This document shows, piece by piece, positions 6,846 through 21,437 of a stretch of 64,000 bases of DNA (its first letter is position 1; each line of letters opens with the position of its first letter). The stretch spans positions 1,664 through 65,663 of the forward strand of contig JALNZW010000003.1 in the NCBI GenBank assembly GCA_023229115.1, read 5' to 3'. Position numbers and translations under genes: made by a program. Origin of the DNA: Patescibacteria group bacterium. GTDB taxonomy: Bacteria > Patescibacteriota > Patescibacteriia > Patescibacteriales > UBA12465. The notes beneath the pieces were generated by a model that saw nothing but the letters and a program-made list of their open reading frames with translations, was not told the origin of the DNA and did no database searches.

Positions 6846-6912
6846 GGTACAGATCATTGCTCCGAGGCTAGGACGCGAACGGGTCTCTCGAACCACGCCC
6901 GTCCCTCGGTAA
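6846..6912. other. GC-rich conserved intergenic motif copy 1 (GGCTAGGACGCGAACGGGTCTCTCGAACCACGCC within a ccgagg...cctcgg stem)
   Basis: Roughly 55% GC island in a roughly 30% GC genome. It shares GGCTA..GACGCG-N3-GGGTCTCTCGAA-NC-NCGC with 12401-12456 and sits immediately 3' of the minus-strand gene ending at 6917. Confidence 0.4.
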
Positions 6913-12202: not shown

Positions 12203-12253
12203 ATGAGTTATTTAAGAGTCAATTATTAATTAATAAATAAATATATATTTTAT

Positions 12254-12284: not shown

Positions 12285-12400
12285 TTTTAACCAAACAAAA
12301 AATACCTCGAATTTGAGATATTTTTTGCAACCTACTACGCATTTCAGTTCGAACCCCTTTCCCAGTAGGAAATAAAAGTATCGAACTAAAAATTGTTTTT

Positions 12401-12456
12401 GGCTAATATTAGACGCGTATGGGTCTCTCGAAACGCGCACTAGGTTGGCTCTGCGG
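12401..12456. other. GC-rich conserved intergenic motif copy 2 (GGCTAATATTAGACGCGTATGGGTCTCTCGAAACGCGC...)
   Basis: Shares the GACGCG-N3-GGGTCTCTCGAA core with 6846-6912. It also contains the 11-mer AATATTAGACG, which recurs at 20588-20598 and 21320-21330. Confidence 0.4.
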
Positions 12457-12528
12457 ATTACATATTTTCAGAGTTATTTAACATATTCCCTGCGATTAAA
12501 ATTAGTATGGGCAAACTGGAAAAAATAA

Positions 12529-13191
12529 TTAATTAATCAAAATCAGCCAAGCTTTTAAATTTTCTTTTTTTGTAAATTTATTTAGTTTTCTCCCATATCT
12601 ATTCGCCATAACACTTAGAATATAATTTATAGTTTTTTCCATTATTTCTAAGCGATCACCCGTAAACACAGCTTCTTCATTTGGTTCAAAGTTTTTATGA
12701 TAGTTCTCTATATGTATTCTATTTCTAAGCCATGCAAAATTATCTAAATATTTATAGATATTGCCATTTTCACTAAAGAGCAAATTGAATTTTCTGCAAT
12801 AATCGATAATTTCTTTAAAGTCATATCTTTTCATGGCGTAATACTTTTGAGCCTCTCCAGTGAGAACGTCAATTCTTTCTTTTTGCCTTTTGTCTTTTCC
12901 AATTTTAGATTTTATTTTTAAGACATCGTCTGAGGCCAAGCATTCTGGTAAATCATTAGTTGCGTTATCTAACCTTATTAACAAATCTATTAGTATTGCC
13001 TCTATAATCGAAACTAAAAAAATTGTGATCGGTTTATTATAACACATAGCATCTTCCTCCAAACCATTTTTCTTCGCTTCATACAATAAAAAAAGTATTT
13101 TAAAATTGTAAATTATATTGCCTCCTATATTAAAATTCCAGATAAATTCAGATAAATACATTGTTACTTCGGTTTTGTCATACTTAAACAT
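12529..13191 (-). CDS. hypothetical protein (220 aa), last gene of the putative island
   Basis: ORF with no recognised motif. It sits between the ATPase cluster and the GC-rich motif. Confidence 0.45.
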   Translation of the reverse strand: MFKYDKTEVTMYLSEFIWNFNIGGNIIYNFKILFLLYEAKKNGLEEDAMCYNKPITIFLVSIIEAILIDLLIRLDNATNDLPECLASDDVLKIKSKIGKDKRQKERIDVLTGEAQKYYAMKRYDFKEIIDYCRKFNLLFSENGNIYKYLDNFAWLRNRIHIENYHKNFEPNEEAVFTGDRLEIMEKTINYILSVMANRYGRKLNKFTKKENLKAWLILIN

Positions 13192-13245
13192 GGTGGTTAA
13201 ACTAAAAGATATTATCCAATTAAATTTTATATATTAAACTAAAAT

Positions 13246-15021
13246 TTAAAACCCCTTACCTCCAAACAGTAAATCATCTTTATCTAATTTTCTTACAATG
13301 TTTTCTTTCTCAATATCAAACCCCTGAGGGACATCACTTTTAATCATGCTAACAATAAGTTGGACATCATACTGAGTACTATAACGTTTAAAAAGTTTGA
13401 TAAAATTTTTCACAGGGTTATCCCCCCAATTTTCCAAGCCGCCATCTAAATAACAAAAGTTAAAATATGAATATTTAGAATAATACAATAAGATGGCTAC
13501 AATAAACGCCACGCACTGCACTCTTGTGGCGGTGTAACCGTCTCCCTTGCCTGTTAATTTTGCTTGATTTAGCGTAACTGTTTTAAAATCTACATTATTT
13601 TCCTTATTCATATTAATGCCAATAACTGCAGTATCATCCATAGACTCTTTATATATTTCGCTAAAAATATTTTGAATTTCCCTATATTCATTTCCAGAAA
13701 GCACCTTATCGACTTCGTTTTTTATTTCATCTATAATAACCTCAATTTTTCTTTTTAGTTGTTGAACGCCTTCTTCGAGTTTCTTAATATCACTAATATT
13801 ATCCAACTGATTTCTATAATCCTTAATTTCAGATTCAATATCAATAATATCGCGCTGATAAATTTTAAACTTAACGAAAGTGTCTTTTTCTTTTAATGTC
13901 TCAAGCGCAAAAAAGCGTTTTTCATTATATTCAATCAACTTTGTTTGGATACTTTCTAATTCATTTTCAAGTTCCACAAGCTCCTCTTTTAAATACTTTT
14001 CTCTTTCCTTTGTTATATCTCTTTCAAAGCTAATTAAGTCTTCGTAATCATTAACCAATTCCTTGGGAAAATAAATTTTTGCCTCATTAAAAATTTTTTC
14101 AATTTCTTTTAAATCAACACTTTCCCGGCTTTCTATAGATTCGTTTATCTTATCTTTTTCATAAGTTACATAGTATTTTCTTGAATTTAAATCAGAAATA
14201 TTTTTCTCAATATCTTCAATTAAATCCTTATTTAATCCGGCTTCCTTTGCAAAAAAATTAAATTGGTCTATTTTTCTCTGCACAGATTCTCTTTCTTTAT
14301 TTTTTGTATCAATTATAGTTTGAATTATATTTTTTTCGTCAGACACACCATTCTCATTCGATTTTCTTTTAATATAACGCTCTTCGTGAGAAATATCATC
14401 TGCGAGTTCAAATTTGTCCAACAATAAAACGCCATTGCCTCCAAATAAGTCAAACAAAAATGGTTTCCAGTACCTATCTTTACTCTTAAAACTTTTCATT
14501 TTAAAAATATCGCCGTATTCATCCTGTTTTCTAAGAATGTATTTCAAAAAGTGACGGTAATTGTGATCCTGAAGCTTATTAAAGTTTAAATATGACTCCA
14601 ATATTTTAACAGCATTCTGTTCATTTGACTTAGTGTTTATAGACACTTCAGTATAGTCCCATGAGTCCATATCTATATTTGTAAAATCCTGATTCTTTTC
14701 TTCATGCAACTTAAAAGAGACTCTTGAACTAATATTTACGCTTCTTCTTATTGTTAAATACTTTCCACTATTTAATTTTATTTCAAGAAAAAATGTCCAA
14801 TCACGAAACTCAAGATAATTTTTTTTAAAAAAATCGCTTTGTTTTTTGAGTAATAAAAAATCAATTAAATAAACTAATGCTGTTTTACCTAAATTATGTT
14901 CATGAAATTTTCCATCTTTGTCAACCTCATTCACGACATCACCAAAAACAATATTCAAACCTTTATCGAATAATATTGGCTTCATTTTTAAATTGTTCGA
15001 ATATATTTTGCTCAACATCAT
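13246..15021 (-). CDS. P-loop NTPase with SMC/ABC-like architecture (DUF2326/YydD-like; candidate ABC-3C-type ATPase)
   Basis: 591 aa. The N-terminal GLNIVFGDV...HNLGKTALVYLIDFLL is a Walker A (GKT) in the SMC/RecF/ABC-like N-terminal style. There is a long central coiled coil (ELVELENELESIQTKLIEYNEK...) and a C-terminal YLDGGLENWGD block. Confidence 0.6.
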   Translation of the reverse strand: MMLSKIYSNNLKMKPILFDKGLNIVFGDVVNEVDKDGKFHEHNLGKTALVYLIDFLLLKKQSDFFKKNYLEFRDWTFFLEIKLNSGKYLTIRRSVNISSRVSFKLHEEKNQDFTNIDMDSWDYTEVSINTKSNEQNAVKILESYLNFNKLQDHNYRHFLKYILRKQDEYGDIFKMKSFKSKDRYWKPFLFDLFGGNGVLLLDKFELADDISHEERYIKRKSNENGVSDEKNIIQTIIDTKNKERESVQRKIDQFNFFAKEAGLNKDLIEDIEKNISDLNSRKYYVTYEKDKINESIESRESVDLKEIEKIFNEAKIYFPKELVNDYEDLISFERDITKEREKYLKEELVELENELESIQTKLIEYNEKRFFALETLKEKDTFVKFKIYQRDIIDIESEIKDYRNQLDNISDIKKLEEGVQQLKRKIEVIIDEIKNEVDKVLSGNEYREIQNIFSEIYKESMDDTAVIGINMNKENNVDFKTVTLNQAKLTGKGDGYTATRVQCVAFIVAILLYYSKYSYFNFCYLDGGLENWGDNPVKNFIKLFKRYSTQYDVQLIVSMIKSDVPQGFDIEKENIVRKLDKDDLLFGGKGF

Positions 15022-15254
15022 AAAACAAATTCTATTACATCTTTATTTTTATAATACTTAATTTTTCTTATTGCGAATAAAAAACAAAGTGATTTTAAAT
15101 ATAAACCCTTTACTCGCTGACCTTTTATAACGATCAGTCTCCGAAGTAAATCATCATATCCAATTATTTTATTTTCCATCAGAATTTTTAACAACACAGA
15201 GCTAATATTTAAAACAGAGTATTCTAAATTTAAATGTTTTGTTGGTTTTAACAT
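15018..15254 (-). CDS. small protein (78 aa from internal Met; the ORF track gives a 129-aa version overlapping the upstream gene) - possible middle component
   Basis: The start was chosen at MLKPTK to avoid a 149-nt overlap with 15259-16236. Its stop overlaps the ATPase start (ATGA-type coupling). Confidence 0.35.
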   Translation of the reverse strand: MLKPTKHLNLEYSVLNISSVLLKILMENKIIGYDDLLRRLIVIKGQRVKGLYLKSLCFLFAIRKIKYYKNKDVIEFVL

Positions 15255-15258
15255 AATA

Positions 15259-16236
15259 TTATGGATTAATACCAAGATCACAATTGAAATACATATAATG
15301 AAGAAGCGTAAATATTTTTCTTTTATCGTATCCCAAGTCTTTAGTAAATTTTTCTTCCACTCTATTATAAACTTCTTGAAAAAACTCAGAAATACTATAA
15401 TATTCATCCTTTTTTGAAATATAAATTTCTTGGAGTTCGTTAAAAACAGAATTATAACAATTTAAAACTTCTTCATTAGCGTCTTCGCTCAAAAAAGATC
15501 TAATAGGGAGATGATGCCTAATATTTTTTCTAACTATATTTTCAAAATAATCTGAAGACATATTATTCTTAATATTCTTTATCTTAATGTCTTTTCTGGT
15601 CGGAATTTTAGTTATTTTCATCTCTGCGATTACGCCATTCTTAATTTCATCGCGAAGTTTTAATACCAAATTTTTTATATCCTCTTCGTTTAAACGAATC
15701 GGTTCATGTAAATTAATTTTAATGTAATCTGCTATATTAATATCTAATATTTTTAAAAGTTTTGACCATTTAACGGGGCTTAGTTGATTAATATCATTGA
15801 CAAGGTCGAAAATATCTTTAATTTGTGTTGTTTTATCAAAATTAAATTTTCCATCAATCTCCTTTTCAAAATCAACAGATTTATACCCACCAGAGCTTTT
15901 TTTACCAATAATAAAAATTATTAACTCGGGAAATTCAAGCGCTCTTGTCGAATGGCTTCTAAGAGTGTCTTTAATTTTTTCAGATCTACTTTCTGACGTT
16001 ATCTGATATGCCACTCCAGCACCTTTGTCACCAAGATCAATGCCTTTTATATTTTTTTCTACCTGATTTAAATTTTTTAAATTAAGATTATAGATTTCAT
16101 TCAAAAAAGTACAAAAAAAATCCTCACTTTTTTTATGAATATCAAATAAACACTGAGAGCCTCTTTGCTCAACATTATTTCGCAATACTCCGAGAGCATC
16201 ACTAATTTGCAAATTAATACCTATACTTTTTAACAT
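15259..16236 (-). CDS. hypothetical protein, candidate effector/sensor of the ATPase cluster (C-terminal R-x4-H HEPN-like motif RKNIRHH)
   Basis: 325 aa with conserved-looking IKGIDLGDKGAGVAYQITS and C-terminal YFENIVRKNIRHHLPIRSF. It is co-directional with, and tightly spaced to, the small ORF and the ATPase. Confidence 0.45.
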   Translation of the reverse strand: MLKSIGINLQISDALGVLRNNVEQRGSQCLFDIHKKSEDFFCTFLNEIYNLNLKNLNQVEKNIKGIDLGDKGAGVAYQITSESRSEKIKDTLRSHSTRALEFPELIIFIIGKKSSGGYKSVDFEKEIDGKFNFDKTTQIKDIFDLVNDINQLSPVKWSKLLKILDINIADYIKINLHEPIRLNEEDIKNLVLKLRDEIKNGVIAEMKITKIPTRKDIKIKNIKNNMSSDYFENIVRKNIRHHLPIRSFLSEDANEEVLNCYNSVFNELQEIYISKKDEYYSISEFFQEVYNRVEEKFTKDLGYDKRKIFTLLHYMYFNCDLGINP

Positions 16237-16369
16237 TTAACTTTAATTATACATCCTTAATGCAAACATAAAATGTGTGAAAAATTGCGTTTTTAGATAT
16301 ATAGAAAAACAATTTTAATATCTTTATTTTAACAGAAAAACCGTTTTAAATCAAAATGACATTCATAAA

Positions 16370-16393
16370 CAAAAAGACGCCTAAACGGCGTCT
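16370..16393 (-). terminator. rho-independent terminator overlapping the methyltransferase stop codon
   Basis: agacgcc/ggcgtct 7-bp stem with the TAG stop in the loop, followed by TTTTT on the minus strand. Confidence 0.55.
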
Positions 16394-17631
16394 CTTAGTG
16401 ATTCTCCTAATTTTTTAATAACTCCGACAACTAAAGCATTGCCCATAATGAATGCTCTTTTAATATCAGGAGCCATTTCAGTATGATTATCAGGAAACAT
16501 ATTTAATCTTTCAAGCTCCAAAGGCATTAATCTTCTCAGCCTTCCTGACTTTGTCTTTATTACATGTTTAAATCTTGATGGAGATGTTCCTCCTTCACCA
16601 GTAACTATTGTTCGAGAAGGTTTATTAATTAAATCAGGAAAGGCCATTTTTCCTTCAGAATAATTATACTCATGTCCGTCTTTAGATTTCCTTGGTGCCG
16701 TCTTTCCACCCTTTAAATATTCCCACCTCTTGATATCAGCAGGTTTAATAAAAAACTCTTCGGGAACTTTTTTTTCATCAATTAAAAAGTCTCCCAATAT
16801 TGAACTCTTACCCTTATAATCTGATTCAACCTTCATTGTTGTTACATGCCCGTTTATCATTACTCCGGCGTTTTCAAATGGACTCTTCGATGGCATATCC
16901 TTTGAAAATTTTTCAGAAACATAAACATAATCAGTGCCAATTTCAAATTGACTAAATTTAACCACGTCTTGATTAACCTTAAAAGCCTTAGCTATTAAAC
17001 CATCATTATTTATCCATTTCTTTTTATCTTTACAGGCTAAAACTTTTTTCCAAATAGATGTATTTTGTTTATAACCCATTATATAAATACGCCGACGACG
17101 TTGAGGAAAACCATAATCAGCGGCATTAATAACTCTCCACTCTACTGCGTAACCGAGTTTAGCTAAAGAGGACAACATAATAGCAAAATCACGACCTCTT
17201 TGTTTAACAGGAGATTTTAATAATCGATCAACATTTTCCAATAATAGAAACTTAGGAGTATTTTTGCCCTTCTTATTGAGAATATTAAAAATAGACCACC
17301 ATAGAACTCCTTTCTTTCCCTCCAGCCCTTTTGATTGCTTAAGTGTCCTGGCAACTGAATAATCTTGGCAAGGAAAACCGCCAACTAATAAATCATGATT
17401 AGGAATGTCATCAAATTTCATATCAACCACCTCTTGTATATCTTCACAAGAGTGTCCTTTACCACCAAAACGAGCCACATAAATATCTGAAGCATACTGT
17501 TTTTTGGCTCCTGGCTCCCACTGACTACTCCAAACAACTCTATATTTTGTATTATTATTACTGGCACCCTCAAGACCAATTCGAAAACCGCCCACACCAG
17601 CAAAAAGCTCAACGATTTTTATCTCCTTCAT
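16381..17631 (-). CDS. DNA (cytosine-5)-methyltransferase
   Basis: Motif I ELFAGVGGF, motif IV GGFPCQDYS, motif VI ENV and motif X MGNALVVGV. It is 416 aa, matching the M.Sau3AI size class. Confidence 0.9.
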   Translation of the reverse strand: MKEIKIVELFAGVGGFRIGLEGASNNNTKYRVVWSSQWEPGAKKQYASDIYVARFGGKGHSCEDIQEVVDMKFDDIPNHDLLVGGFPCQDYSVARTLKQSKGLEGKKGVLWWSIFNILNKKGKNTPKFLLLENVDRLLKSPVKQRGRDFAIMLSSLAKLGYAVEWRVINAADYGFPQRRRRIYIMGYKQNTSIWKKVLACKDKKKWINNDGLIAKAFKVNQDVVKFSQFEIGTDYVYVSEKFSKDMPSKSPFENAGVMINGHVTTMKVESDYKGKSSILGDFLIDEKKVPEEFFIKPADIKRWEYLKGGKTAPRKSKDGHEYNYSEGKMAFPDLINKPSRTIVTGEGGTSPSRFKHVIKTKSGRLRRLMPLELERLNMFPDNHTEMAPDIKRAFIMGNALVVGVIKKLGESLRDAV

Positions 17632-17697
17632 AATATTTCTCTAATTAATAAGCTATGCATGTAGCATAGCATATCAAAAAAAATTGATCAACACCCC

Positions 17698-19125
17698 TTA
17701 TTTTTCGAGGTTTTTCCTTATATAATCAGCATTAAGCCAGAAACAATGTTTCGTATAAAACTTACTACCTGTAAATTCATCTTCCGTTGGAAGTTCTATT
17801 ACATCAGAGGAATCCTTTCCATGAGGCCTAACATGTGCAACTCCATTAAACTTTGATGTTGGAAAGAAGGTAAATCTTCTTTCTTTGCCATTTTTATATT
17901 TTTTTATTTCTTTAACTATTTTACCTTTATCAACTAATTTCTTAGTCTTGCTCCAAACACTCTCAGCGTAGTTCATGTCAGAGGCGGGAAAGTTCCAAAA
18001 TTTATAGCCCTCAAAATGAATTAGATCTTTTGTCTTATCTTTATCTTTCCTAAAAATTATAAACAAAAACCTATCTTCTTCTAACATCTTGAAGAAATTA
18101 GTTTCCTCCCATTTCTGTTTCAGAATTTGTTTATAGTTAAAATATGGAAACGAGATTGATTCTTTTAATTTACCATTACTTTCTAACACCACAACTTTCA
18201 TTGTGACATTAGATTTCTCAAACTCCTCAACCTTATTAGCTGATATGCCGAGCATGAGATTGGCAAGTAATCTTTTATATTGCTTAGTTTTCTTATTAAC
18301 CTTAAGGCCAATCTCAGAAAGTATCTGTTTATCAGACATCCCAATAAAAGGAGCTAATCTATCATCAACAGACTTATCTATTGTCTTTCCTTTTTCGGAT
18401 ATAGATTGAATATCCCCCTCCAATCCCATAATCTTTTCATGGAGAATAAAATTTAAATAGTTTTGCTTCAAAGAAAAGGCTCTTGGCTTTGCTTGTATGT
18501 CAGAGTTTGGCTGCTTTCTTGTAATAGAACTATTAGCCGCCTTCGTGCAAGCACCGAGATAAAAAGTCTCGCCCTCTGAAAGTAAATGCGCCTCCCCTCT
18601 TTTAATTTTATTTATAATATACTCCCAATCATTCTTAATCTGCAAAGCATCTTCAGCAGAAATCTTGTTCACTAAATCAAGTTCATAAAGAAACTTAAAT
18701 TTATATTCCAATAAACTTAGGTCGCTCTCATAAAGATAAAACATAAGTAATATTAACTTATTCTTATCCAAAAATGAACTATGCTCCCAATCTTCTAATA
18801 CAACAGATACATAGTCTATCATTGAGAATACAAGGCGTTCTTTAACGGCATATTCTTTGCTTTTATGTTTTTTTATTGGCGTTGTTTTTAATTCAACTCC
18901 GGCAATCTTAAAGTCAGCCTCATGTCTATTGTCCACCAAAGCCTGGTTAAATACATATTTTTGAACAAGTTGACCAAGAAATCCTTTTCTTTTTTTTCCG
19001 TGTTTTTCTATATCTCTTTTTGCCTCAGCAACATCATCTTTTTCCATCACATCAAGAAGGCGCTTATCCATAAAGGCTAAGGCATCATTAAAGACTTCTT
19101 CTTTTGTGTTATAAACTTTTAACAT
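17698..19125 (-). CDS. type II restriction endonuclease, Sau3AI/MutH family (predicted GATC-specific)
   Basis: 475 aa. The MutH-like catalytic region is DNRHEADFKIAGVELKTTPIKK (D...E-x-K with the GVELKT motif), and the gene lies directly upstream of the C5-MTase. Confidence 0.7.
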   Translation of the reverse strand: MLKVYNTKEEVFNDALAFMDKRLLDVMEKDDVAEAKRDIEKHGKKRKGFLGQLVQKYVFNQALVDNRHEADFKIAGVELKTTPIKKHKSKEYAVKERLVFSMIDYVSVVLEDWEHSSFLDKNKLILLMFYLYESDLSLLEYKFKFLYELDLVNKISAEDALQIKNDWEYIINKIKRGEAHLLSEGETFYLGACTKAANSSITRKQPNSDIQAKPRAFSLKQNYLNFILHEKIMGLEGDIQSISEKGKTIDKSVDDRLAPFIGMSDKQILSEIGLKVNKKTKQYKRLLANLMLGISANKVEEFEKSNVTMKVVVLESNGKLKESISFPYFNYKQILKQKWEETNFFKMLEEDRFLFIIFRKDKDKTKDLIHFEGYKFWNFPASDMNYAESVWSKTKKLVDKGKIVKEIKKYKNGKERRFTFFPTSKFNGVAHVRPHGKDSSDVIELPTEDEFTGSKFYTKHCFWLNADYIRKNLEK

Positions 19126-19131
19126 AAATTA

Positions 19132-19938
19132 TTAAACAATCAACTTTATTTTTGAATCTCTCAAAAATCTGGTTAAGGTTCTTTTTTCTTGACCACCCCT
19201 TGGCACTCTTCCGTAAAATCTTTGTGATCCGACTCTTTTAGTACAGTAACTTATGTAAAGACCGTGCTTAGCTCTTGTCATTGAAACATAAAGCAATCTT
19301 CTTTCGTCTCCAATAAATTCACCTTCATTTTTCCCTGGTAAAAACTCATCTTCAGCCCCAACAATAAAGCAAACATCAAATGTTAACCCTTTAGCTTTGT
19401 GCATAGTAAGAATACTAACAGCATCCTTTTCTGCACTCTGTTCTATTCTATCAGAATTAATACCGATAGACTTTACTATGCTCTCTAATGTATCAGATTC
19501 ATCTGAAATATATTTAACAAAATATTTTAAAATCCTCTCACGTAAAACGGTATCTTCCACATAGTGCTCTATAACTCCTTTAACTTTATCAATTAAATTG
19601 TCTATTTTATTAAATTCTTCTAAATCATCTTCTACTTTTTCAACGAAACTCTTTATCTTTTCTCCATATTTACTAACAACAATATTTTGCTTTATTTCTT
19701 GTAAAGATTTACTGAATCTAAGATTTTTATCAACTGCTATTCGAAAAACATCATCAATACTTTTTTCTCCAATATTATTTTTAGCAAGCTCCAAGAGTGT
19801 TCTCCACGCTAAATCATCTTCTTTATTCGATAATAATCTAAAAATAGAAAGGACGACTCTAAATTCTGACTGGCTTTCTAATGCTGAATCAGGGGCACCC
19901 GCAATCATGATACCATTACCAACAAGCACATCACTCAT
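19132..19938 (-). pseudogene. helicase C-terminal fragment (SF1 UvrD-like motifs V-VI) of a disrupted nuclease-helicase gene
   Basis: ILTMHKAKGLTFDVCFIVGAED ... LLYVSMTRAKHGLYI are UvrD/PcrA helicase C-terminal motifs. No Walker A/B is found in this ORF. Confidence 0.55.
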
Positions 19939-19973
19939 TAAACTTAAAATGGCAGCACTTCTTGATAATATGA

Positions 19974-20558
19974 CTATTTTTTCTGCTGGAACACCTTTAC
20001 TAATACATCAAATGCTGATAAATAAGTCTTTCCAAGACCTGTGGCGAATACTACAAGACCTTTGTTTTTGCCAGATTTTCTTGTTTCATCTAAAGCCTCA
20101 AGGGCACGATTTTGAATATAGTGAGGCTCAACATCTCCCAACCTATTTAAATATATTTTATAAAGTTGTTCATCACCTATAAAACTTCTTCTTATTTCCC
20201 AAATGCAAGATTGAGGCTCTTTTCTTATTAAATCATTGGTAAATCGTATTAGATGAAAACCCTCTTTTATAATTTCGTTTTGCTTGTTTTGTAAATGATT
20301 AAAATATTCTTTAGTAACAGCTCCTTGCGCGTGATAATAGAGGCCGTCACACTCTATTGCATATTTTTTAAATTTTGTTGTTATAACAAAATCTAGTCTA
20401 TACACACCAGAACCATCTGGTTTAGGTATTTCATATTCTGGAGTAATATAATCAAGCCCCTTTTCTCCAAAATCTTTATAATAAACATTGATTATAAAGG
20501 TTTTACCCAAATCATTTAGCTTGTTTTTATATTTAAATAAAAAATCATTTAGTTTCAT
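19974..20558 (-). pseudogene. N-terminal fragment: DUF559/Vsr-like PD-(D/E)xK endonuclease domain plus helicase Walker A (ATGLGKTY), truncated
   Basis: YRLDFVI...AIECDGLYYH nuclease motifs, then GLVVFATGLGKTYLS. The ORF ends 20 residues later. The next ORF is in a different frame and carries only C-terminal helicase motifs. Confidence 0.5.
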
Positions 20559-20566
20559 ACAAACAA

Positions 20567-20586
20567 GGTTGATTGTAAAATCAACC
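20567..20586 (-). promoter_or_regulatory. 7-bp stem hairpin (ggttgat/atcaacc) immediately upstream of the 20558 start codon
   Basis: Perfect inverted repeat 9 nt before the ATG, adjacent to the AATATTAGACG 11-mer and a TATAAT box. Confidence 0.3.
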
Positions 20587-20682
20587 GAATATTAGACGAT
20601 AAATTATATAATTATTGTATCATTTAAAACGGCCTGGGTCAAAAAAAATAAATCCCTAAATATAAGGTATTTTTATACTTTA

Positions 20683-20979
20683 TCACTTCTTTTTTCTGCA
20701 GACATCGCACCCCGCCATGCCAGTAAACCATGGCCAATGTTCAATGCTATTACTAAATTTAATATATGAATTTGATACTGGTCTATGAATTCTATTCTTT
20801 TTACATTTTGGACATAGAATGCCATTACAAAGACAGGTAACTGAAATTAGCTTTTCACCTTCTTCTGGACTGTTATTGAAAAAATCGTTACCCCAATTTA
20901 AATATTTTTTCATTATTTTTCCATTATATTCCCCGCAAACTTTGCACTCAATTAAACCTTTCGAAATTTCGTTTTCCAT
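20683..20979 (-). CDS. Cys-rich zinc-ribbon protein (hypothetical)
   Basis: 98 aa with CKVC, CLC...CPKC and CDVC pairs. Confidence 0.5.
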   Translation of the reverse strand: MENEISKGLIECKVCGEYNGKIMKKYLNWGNDFFNNSPEEGEKLISVTCLCNGILCPKCKKNRIHRPVSNSYIKFSNSIEHWPWFTGMAGCDVCRKKK

Positions 20980-21049
20980 AAATTTATTGATTAATAATAA
21001 AAAACCTCTTCCCCTAGATTGAGAAAGAGTTTTTATTTATGAAAATAAA

Positions 21050-21170
21050 AAATCGACCTTTATCTTCCCCATCTAGGGCTAGGTTTAGCACCTTCTGAAT
21101 GGATTACTTCAGGGTTGCTGGCAGGTCATCGGGCTAGTTCCCTCACTGCACTCTTTATAAATAGATTATT
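21050..21170 (-). ncRNA. candidate structured ncRNA (GC-rich island, unidentified family)
   Basis: A roughly 55% GC, 120-nt island in an AT-rich spacer. On the minus strand an extended -10 (gTGcTATAAT, plus-strand 21190-21200) lies just upstream, and a hairpin plus T-run (about 21005-21040) lies downstream. Nested complementarity is present (gcag..ctgc, cggg..ccc). Confidence 0.35.
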
Positions 21171-21249
21171 CAATTGTAATTATATTATAGCACTATTACT
21201 ATCAAGAATAAAACAAGGCTCGGATTCGAACTAAGATTATCCTTCATAT

Positions 21250-21312
21250 AAAGCTCTTTTAGTTCATTTGACTTAATTAAAAGAGCTCAGCCTAAACTGA
21301 GTTCTTTTAATT
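21250..21312. other. stable hairpin pair (agctctttt...aaaagagct outer stem; ctcag-cctaaa-ctgag inner hairpin plus T-run)
   Basis: 9-bp and 5-bp stems followed by ttcttttaatttttt. Possibly a terminator for tRNA-Asn read-through or a small RNA. Confidence 0.35.
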
Positions 21313-21362
21313 TTTTAGTAATATTAGACGACTCCTGTCGGTCTACTACACTAAAACGTTGT

Positions 21363-21437
21363 TGGCTCCGAGGGTGGGATTCGAACCCACGACCAATTGA
21401 TTAACAGTCAACTGCGCTACCGCTGCGCCACCTCGGA
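21363..21437 (-). tRNA. tRNA-Asn (anticodon GTT)
   Basis: Manual cloverleaf TCCGAGG-TG-GCGC-AGCGGTA-GCGC-A-GTTGA-CTGTTAA-TCAAT-TGGTC-GTGGG-TTCGAAT-CCCAC-CCTCGGA-G-CCA. It has a 7-bp acceptor stem, U33 and A37, anticodon GUU, and an encoded CCA. Confidence 0.9.

Follow-up and report, generated by a model that had tools for sequence, protein, structure and literature searches.

A tRNA-Asn-associated defence island in a Patescibacteria genome, likely a decayed relative of large-serine-recombinase islands

Results

The island and its boundaries

Bacteria of the Candidate Phyla Radiation (CPR), or Patescibacteria, have very small genomes, in which few mobile elements or defence systems are known. 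A 64-kb stretch of DNA from one such bacterium (64,000 nt of contig JALNZW010000003.1, assembly GCA_023229115.1; hereafter the window, 30% GC) carries a minus-strand tRNA-Asn(GTT) gene whose 3' end faces an 8.9-kb island of accessory genes. The genes of the island are all on the minus strand and comprise, running away from the tRNA, a cassette with an S-adenosylmethionine (SAM)-I riboswitch and a Cys-rich open reading frame (ORF), two nuclease-helicase fragments, a predicted Sau3AI-type restriction-modification (R-M) pair, a predicted three-gene ABC-3C conflict system and a 220-aa protein. A flanking gene encodes a 351-aa protein that is annotated at NCBI under 'Patescibacteria group bacterium' (locus tag M0Q39_01760) and has relatives in Falkowbacteria, Magasanikbacteria and similar metagenome-assembled genomes (MAGs). 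An initial annotation, made from the sequence alone, had described an accessory island of about 9 kb 3' of tRNA-Asn and three exact copies of an 11-mer, AATATTAGACG, at 12405, 20588 and 21320. Both observations hold: the island is borne out by an empty site in the related locus L024 and by alternative cargos in conspecific strains, the window contains exactly three copies of the 11-mer, all intergenic and on the plus strand, and domain searches found only accessory genes between the outer two. The position given for the tRNA, 21363-21437, is also correct (ARAGORN; Rfam tRNA 73.3 bits), but the gap between the tRNA and the nearest 11-mer is 32 nt and not 28 nt. The 11-mers do not, as had been proposed, delimit the island, since the junctions lie at an octamer and one outer copy is inside the island while the other is outside it, in a flank shared with the empty site.

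Strain and species comparisons place the insert at 12452-21360 (8,909 bp), with junctions at 12451/12452 and 21360/21361, so that it begins 2 nt past the CCA of tRNA-Asn. On the right, a contig from another sample (L002) matches the window at 99.96% identity over 11,059 nt, between 32420 and 21362, and diverges beyond that, homology with L027 (92%) and L029 (80-90%) also ends at 21361, and several short contigs break within tRNA-Asn. On the left, ten contigs of one strain that is 95-98% identical (L008-L017; flank 96-98% identical) match the window from 12451 downward and have different DNA on the island side, and homology with L024 begins at the same base. L024 is a precise empty site, in which a homologue of window 12451-10531 comes immediately after DnaG, RpoD, two small genes and tRNA-Asn, and the 351-aa protein is 91% identical to that of the window; the comparison with relatives lacking the island that the initial annotation had recommended thus gives a sharp boundary, at the octamer and not at the 11-mer. 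This octamer, GTTGGCTC on the plus strand, stands at 12444-12451 and 21361-21368 and has no other copy on either strand of the window. On the gene strand it reads GAGCCAAC, the 3' end of the tRNA: the discriminator, CCA, then AC. The tRNA match (window 21439-21361) and the flank match (12451-10531, 85% identity) of L024 overlap exactly by GAGCCAAC. The insert is defined as 12452-21360 because the octamer occurs only at the two junctions and because the two matches at the empty site overlap by it. The 3' end of tRNA-Asn is the integration target.

Alternative cargos at one site

Conspecific strains, with flanks 96-99.96% identical, carry three mutually unrelated cargos between the same two junctions, that of the window included, and no protein is common to the three. 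The window type is also found in L001, which is identical across the island and has all of its 17 differences at 12205-12248, outside it, and in L004, which covers the tRNA-proximal part at 99.1%. The L002 type consists of a gene for a 707-aa protein, two N6/N4 methyltransferases and a large serine recombinase (LSR). The third type, seen in L027 and L008, is about 14.0 kb long and is complete on a single contig, L086 (13,999 nt); it carries a helix-turn-helix (HTH) protein, type III Mod/Res, an LSR, a LOOT RNA, two methyltransferases, Hachiman HamA/HamB and two small ORFs. In the full annotation of this sister island the LSR is the only recombinase, and the remaining matches include a ParB-methylase and a weak small-terminase-like match (E=0.007, below cut-off). 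The LOOT RNA (Rfam RF03000, 69.5 bits; L008 1777-1903 and L027 17082-17208) adjoins the serine recombinase gene; no functional literature on it was found.

The island had been thought old and fixed. L002, identical to the window at 99.96% over 11 kb of flank, holds a different island, and strains at 96-97% hold a third. With a difference of just 0.04% in the L002 flank, turnover at the tRNA-Asn site is recent, and the idea of an old, fixed island is contradicted. A conspecific MAG, GCA_964572055.1 (L057 and L086), has an LSR island at tRNA-Asn and a second at tRNA-Gln, and a recombinase able to act in trans therefore exists within the species.

The end module of the island

The tRNA-proximal end of the island is a module of about 165 nt, here called trailer A. 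The ten copies in the alignment have a mean column identity of 65% and lie behind tRNA-Asn or tRNA-Gln in LSR-bearing loci. Five elements follow one another in it: TTTTGGTGT-N4-GACCGAC (the TTTTaGTGT..GACCGAC motif); a small hairpin with a 3' strand that continues into (T)CGTCTAATATTA-nn-AAAAA, which is the 11-mer at 21320-21330 and is semi-conserved; an intrinsic terminator at 21275-21312, identified by a terminator scan and supported by 10 covarying pairs, which is the only consensus structure that RNAalifold found in the module; AGTCAAAT followed by TAAATAAAGG; and a T-arm-like GTTCGAATCCGAGCC / TGGTTCGAATCCGAG at 21217-21231. The last of these had been noted as one of two T-loop-like fragments that might be decayed att repeats; it is real and conserved in the end module, whereas its counterpart at 12345-12357 is not within the island and is shared with the empty site. 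A hidden Markov model (HMM) of trailer A matches the window once (21374-21192, E=6.6e-43); additional matches fall in L065, L056, L067 and L097, in some cases as a tandem pair.

Tandem pairs 0.8-1.9 kb apart are found in L065 (16811-18460), L056 and L057, each copy standing after a partial tRNA 3' end, and are therefore read as serial insertions; a coding stretch of about 1.2 kb lies between the two copies of L065. In L099 (118-216 and 1696-1807) an IS91-family (Y2) transposase gene sits inside trailer A and splits it into two overlapping halves. In L018 trailer A follows a tRNA-like site. The window has at 6850-6905, on the minus strand, a mini tRNA-Asn-like element, made up of ACCGAGGG, a hairpin with TTCGAGAGACCC and then TAGCCTCGGAGCAATG; the orthologous site of L018 (5350-5640, 86-90% identical) ends in ..GAGCCAACA and is followed by a trailer-A copy 83% identical to 21222-21368, beyond which are different genes (Peptidase_S51, Fic, GIY-YIG and a methyltransferase). 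The 6850-6905 site and its L018 counterpart look like a secondary or old attachment site.

On the far side of the island, the resident flank of tRNA-Asn, here termed type B, contains a TTCGAGAGACCC hairpin, the 11-mer at 12405-12415, four TTCGA motifs and a terminator-like hairpin at its end. It is collinear with trailer A, and the 11-mer is kept in L024 and L008 (11/11). The four TTCGA motifs fall within 122 nt and form the only such cluster in the 64 kb. Flanks of this type (GAGCCAAC-CyAGTgCG..TTTCGAGAGACCC) belong to islands in L055, L027 and L086, and the seemingly native flank is therefore, most simply, probably a relic of an earlier island end. As an att repeat of the present insertion, the fragment at 12345-12357 was rejected because it is not part of the insert and is retained in the empty-site locus; given the TTCGA cluster there, it may be left over from older events. 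A search of 12290-12470 found no Rfam family at E<=10 beyond noise; 12290-12443 may hold the remains of several old att half-sites, or else encode a small RNA not yet recognised.

Large serine recombinases at tRNA ends

GTDB genomes were scanned with the L008 recombinase (Resolvase + Recombinase + Zn_ribbon_recom), which yielded 44 loci, most with titles naming Patescibacteria/CPR lineages and others with unrelated or generic labels. A tRNA lies downstream of the LSR in 26 of the 44 loci (Gln in ten, Asn in six, Ser in three, Leu in two, Gly and Asp in one each, and three more), the nearest always being on the opposite strand with its 3' end towards the LSR, and none of the 44 has a tRNA upstream. 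Four more loci have a partial tRNA-Asn or a tRNA-Asn cut by the contig end. At either end of the intact island of L055, the 3' end of tRNA-Asn is repeated perfectly over 20-21 bp; the two repeats are 10.4 kb apart and enclose the LSR.

The cargo of the window island recurs in these loci. Its C5 methyltransferase is 92% identical at the amino acid level to genes in the LSR islands of L098 and L063, and its Sau3AI-like restriction endonuclease is 63% identical to genes in L098 and L066, all of which lie between the tRNA or trailer and the recombinase. An LSR gene pointing at the tRNA is present in L002, L027/L008, L055, L063, L066 and L099 and absent from the window; L098 has only a truncated LSR ORF, a possible intermediate stage of decay. 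The window island thus has both the trailer A and the cargo of the Patescibacteria LSR islands and has no LSR of its own, and it is a mosaic of modules that circulate among LSR elements, minus the recombinase. By association, an LSR is the candidate catalyst of integration at the tRNA end.

Cargo of the island

The features of the island and its flanks are listed in Table 1.

Table 1. Features of the island, its junctions and the adjoining flank (window coordinates).
Feature	Position	Strand	Evidence or remark
Right copy of the 8-bp direct repeat	21361-21368	minus	Homology with L002, L027, L029 and L024 stops here
Trailer A, tRNA-proximal end module (~165 nt)	21193-21360	minus	10-copy alignment; nhmmer E=6.6e-43
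Mobile cassette, 524 bp	20669-21192	minus	SAM-I riboswitch and 98-aa Cys-rich ORF
Extended -10 of the cassette, TGCTATAAT	21184-21192	minus	
SAM-I riboswitch aptamer	21057-21163	minus	Rfam RF00162, 62.2 bits (gathering score 44.4)
Expression-platform terminator	21006-21029	minus	Terminator scan
98-aa Cys-rich ORF	20683-20979	minus	Downstream of the riboswitch
Third 11-mer copy	20588-20598	plus	5' leader of the endonuclease-fragment gene, downstream of a promoter-like site
194-aa fragment, restriction-endonuclease-like (MTES_1575/DUF559), then start of a helicase P-loop	19974-20558	minus	Pfam; PADLOC
268-aa fragment, C-terminal half of a UvrD-like superfamily 1 helicase	19132-19938	minus	Pfam UvrD_C, profile positions 109-349 only; NCBIfam
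Sau3AI-family type II restriction endonuclease, 475 aa	17698-19125	minus	NCBIfam NF040973, 429 bits (cut-off 300); Pfam MutH
C5 cytosine DNA methyltransferase, 416 aa, partner of the endonuclease	16381-17631	minus	Pfam PF00145, 206.7 bits
ABC-3C effector, SMEK_N + CTD12, 325 aa	15259-16236	minus	Pfam
ABC-3C middle component MC8, 78 aa as called in L001	15018-15254	minus	Pfam MC8; gene call
ABC-3C ABC ATPase, DUF2326, 591 aa	13246-15021	minus	Pfam; PADLOC PDC-M68B/LmuB-like
220-aa protein	12529-13191	minus	Small family of 39 members; all-helical model
Distal junction, degenerate tRNA 3' end copy TAATCC..GCAGAGCCAAC	12444-12468	minus	Ends in the left octamer, 12444-12451
Resident flank of tRNA-Asn, outside the island (type B, probable trailer relic)	12290-12443	minus	Present at the empty site

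The cassette next to trailer A combines a SAM-I aptamer above its gathering score with a downstream terminator and ORF, and is 92% identical over its 524 bp in L099-L104, inside a tRNA-Gln LSR island in which the riboswitch scores 64.7 bits; in L099 (5438-5960) it lies upstream of an HTH gene and two DNA methyltransferases. The family of the 98-aa protein has 13 members in 5.8 billion proteins, with conserved CxxCGE[YF], CLCxG and RPxSN[ST]Y motifs and a near-invariant HWPWF, and its structural model (predicted local distance difference test score, pLDDT, 70) had no PDB match. By annotation, the protein is zinc-ribbon-like and the SAM-I riboswitch, an OFF switch, would permit its synthesis only at low SAM; with DNA methyltransferases encoded next to it, it could serve as an alarm for SAM depletion, such as that caused by SAM-degrading phage enzymes.

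The two nuclease-helicase fragments lack the helicase core, because the UvrD_C match covers only the C-terminal part of the profile. The restriction endonuclease passes the curated NCBIfam cut-off and is adjacent to a C5 methyltransferase, so that the pair is annotated as a predicted Sau3AI-type R-M system. We take GATC, the site of the named member of the Sau3AI family, as the presumed target, and avoidance of it, a sign of long residence of such a system, was not found across the window (observed/expected 0.88). The most depleted 4-bp palindromes in the window are GGCC (0.63), TGCA (0.68) and GTAC (0.76). The initial annotation had read the next three genes as an ATPase triplet; the three genes are there, but only one of them encodes an ABC ATPase (DUF2326), the others being an MC8 middle component and an SMEK_N/CTD12 effector. 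With ATPase, middle component and an effector with the matching C-terminal domain (CTD) in adjacent or overlapping genes, they are predicted by annotation to form an ABC-3C conflict system.

The 220-aa protein at the distal end has no Pfam, NCBIfam or PHROG family match and no structure match at E<=0.001. The protein has an invariant R156-N157-x-x-H160 (R-N-x-x-H), one residue shorter than the canonical Rx4-6H, and its confident model (pLDDT 90.8) has a weak resemblance, the only meaningful one in the PDB, to a HEPN toxin (probability 0.77-0.89, template modelling score ~0.5, E>0.1; for 7ae2_A, probability 0.89 and score 0.53). It is possibly a HEPN-like nuclease, and a candidate RNase effector.

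Discussion

Origin of the island

The stretch 12452-21360 is a mosaic defence island of 8.9 kb that occupies an integration hotspot behind tRNA-Asn(GTT), at the 3' end of the gene, and it is likely a decayed member of a group of LSR islands. From the shared end module and cargo, we infer that it descends from LSR integrative islands that insert at tRNA 3' ends. An LSR element would have recombined with the end of tRNA-Asn, and the incoming trailer A, which probably holds the recombinase's element-side half-site, would have replaced the downstream flank of the tRNA and supplied a new intrinsic terminator, with the former flank displaced by 8.9 kb to a position behind the degenerate tRNA-end copy. 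Since its recombinase gene would have been lost and the distal site is degenerate, the island is probably immobile alone, and gain or loss could proceed via a recombinase in trans or via homologous exchange of the flanks.

Several observations weigh against this origin. The connection to LSRs is indirect, through module homology and association: as the initial annotation had already stated of integrases, none is left, Pfam finding no recombinase domain in any ORF of the island and tblastn with the sister-island serine recombinases finding no LSR remnant in the whole 64 kb. The perfect repeat is just 8 bp long, with 11/13 matches when extended over the last bases of the tRNA 3' end copy, and is both short and degenerate. 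No clear inverted-repeat partner of the trailer motif was found at the distal end. The apparent point of exchange differs between comparisons, as identity with the tRNA begins at TCGAATCC in the T-loop in L055 and L097, while only GAGCCAAC is common to both junctions and the empty site in the species of the window. Composition gives no sign of foreign origin, where a deviation had been anticipated: the GC content of the island is 30.15%, against 30.45 +/- 1.3% in segments of the same size, and its tetranucleotide distance is equalled or exceeded by about 20% of such segments. With GC and tetranucleotide usage like those of the host, the donors would therefore be compositionally alike.

Alternative explanations

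Were the 11-mer an att core whose copies delimit the island, this would account for its rarity in relatives and for the fact that all three exact copies are on the same strand, with two close to the island ends. The initial annotation had named frequent occurrence across the genome as an argument against its own proposal; the 11-mer is not a common motif, for in 54 related loci it has no copies other than those in the orthologous flank of the tRNA and in this island. As a statistic, the triple occurrence alone is weak, 823 different 11-mers occurring at least three times in the window, at least 40 of these with 3 or more G/C. The true junctions lie about 30-37 bp from the outer 11-mers, with the copy at 21320 being 30 nt inside the island, within trailer A, and the copy at 12405 being 28 nt outside it, in a flank that the empty site and strains with other cargo share. 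The two outer copies are collinear in homologous modules (octamer, 28/30 nt, CGTCTAATATTA, nnAAAAA), and the motif is semi-conserved in the end-module family and missing from some members. The middle copy has no flanking similarity: as a candidate relic of another trailer it was rejected, since local alignment was no better than with shuffled sequences and the trailer-A HMM had no match there at E<=10, and the GACC..AGG resemblance upstream of it is too weak to count, so that this copy is probably due to chance. Given also that the comparisons with L024, L008 and L002 contradict it, the att-core explanation is scarcely credible. On the sequence comparisons, the 11-mer is better described as a by-product of homologous end modules than as a delimiter. 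It would occur both inside and outside the island because serial insertions would leave old trailers and degenerate tRNA-end copies downstream.

As to origin, the interval between tRNA-Asn and the 351-aa gene could be a variable region independent of any recombinase, in which cargos are swapped by homologous recombination in conserved flanks. An island without a recombinase, flanks nearly identical between strains of different cargo, and a composition the same as that of the host all fit this explanation, but in independent comparisons homology breaks off at identical base pairs, which coincide with a direct repeat of the end of the tRNA. The first module of the island is one that accompanies LSR islands elsewhere, at other tRNAs and in other genomes, and LSRs are encoded by sister islands at the same junctions. 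Homologous swapping may move the island between strains today, yet it leaves the origin unexplained, and as a full account we regard it as unlikely. A classical tRNA-targeting island whose tyrosine integrase was later deleted is more doubtful still, and we hold it to be improbable: insertion at a tRNA 3' end with a tRNA-end repeat is the textbook signature of such elements (PMC5704250), but no tyrosine integrase occurs in the annotated sister islands or the annotated LSR loci, where the LSR is the only recombinase, and the LSR genes are strictly oriented to the tRNA 3' ends. A degraded prophage or phage satellite is highly improbable, since neither phage structural nor replication genes occur in any island and the LSR has no close relatives in IMG/VR; tRNA-adjacent integration and the ParB-methylase and sub-threshold terminase-like match of the sister island would be in its favour, and PHROG gave no informative match.

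Implications

Beyond this locus, descent of the island from LSR elements would place it in a family of 1.5-14-kb Patescibacteria islands, inserted by LSRs at the 3' ends of tRNA genes (Asn, Gln, Ser, Leu and others) and each carrying a module of about 165 nt that restores the flank and terminator of the tRNA, with repeated use giving rise to tandem arrays and secondary att sites (6850-6905) and with the SAM-riboswitch module as a possible SAM alarm. This wider generalization stands at about an even chance. No description of such an LSR/tRNA family was found in a limited literature search, and prior accounts may exist elsewhere.

At this locus, comparison at base-pair resolution shows one tRNA end acting as a dock where different defence systems turn over rapidly among strains that share 96-99.96% identity elsewhere. 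If the link to LSRs is true, tRNA 3' ends would join the target repertoire of LSRs, and the loci would offer natural attB/attP pairs usable for engineering these uncultivated bacteria. Through the riboswitch cassette, metabolite sensing would be built into a defence island, a rare combination.

Comparison with known systems

The island resembles genomic islands and integrative and mobilizable elements (IMEs) of the tyrosine-integrase type at tRNA genes in its insertion at a tRNA 3' end that leaves the tRNA intact, in the tRNA-end repeat at the far junction, and in its accessory cargo, presence/absence polymorphism and tandem accretion of remnants. Adjacency to an intact tRNA 3' end, a precise empty site and tRNA-derived direct repeats, all expected of such islands, are found here, whereas an integrase or recombinase of its own and an atypical base composition are not; the recombinase of the sister islands is an LSR, and the repeat is only 8 bp. 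Site-specific serine-recombinase elements are described as integrating within genes, with integration at tRNA 3' ends being credited to tyrosine integrases (PMC5704250). Among LSR elements (phiC31, Bxb1; SCCmec CcrAB; Tn4451-like IMEs), the likeness lies in the Resolvase + Recombinase + Zn_ribbon_recom architecture of the sole recombinase of the sister islands and in junction repeats, which can be very short in such elements; unlike them, the targets here are tRNA 3' ends, the tRNA is restored, and a module of about 165 nt brings a replacement terminator.

As in other defence islands and hotspots, one site holds varied defence sets in conspecific strains (type II and type III R-M, ABC-3C, Hachiman), but the host here is a small-genome CPR/Patescibacteria bacterium and a tRNA end fixes the hotspot to the exact base pair. 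Genomic islands with R-M systems have been predicted in Patescibacteria by composition-based tools (PMC12455944), and the main text of that study makes no mention of tRNA, integrase or recombinase. Those islands are alike in their R-M cargo, whereas the bounds given here come from an empty site and strain comparison, and the composition is not deviant. A tRNA-adjacent defence island is therefore of an ordinary, known kind, and it is the apparent link of LSRs to tRNA 3' ends, together with the flank-replacement module, that is less ordinary.

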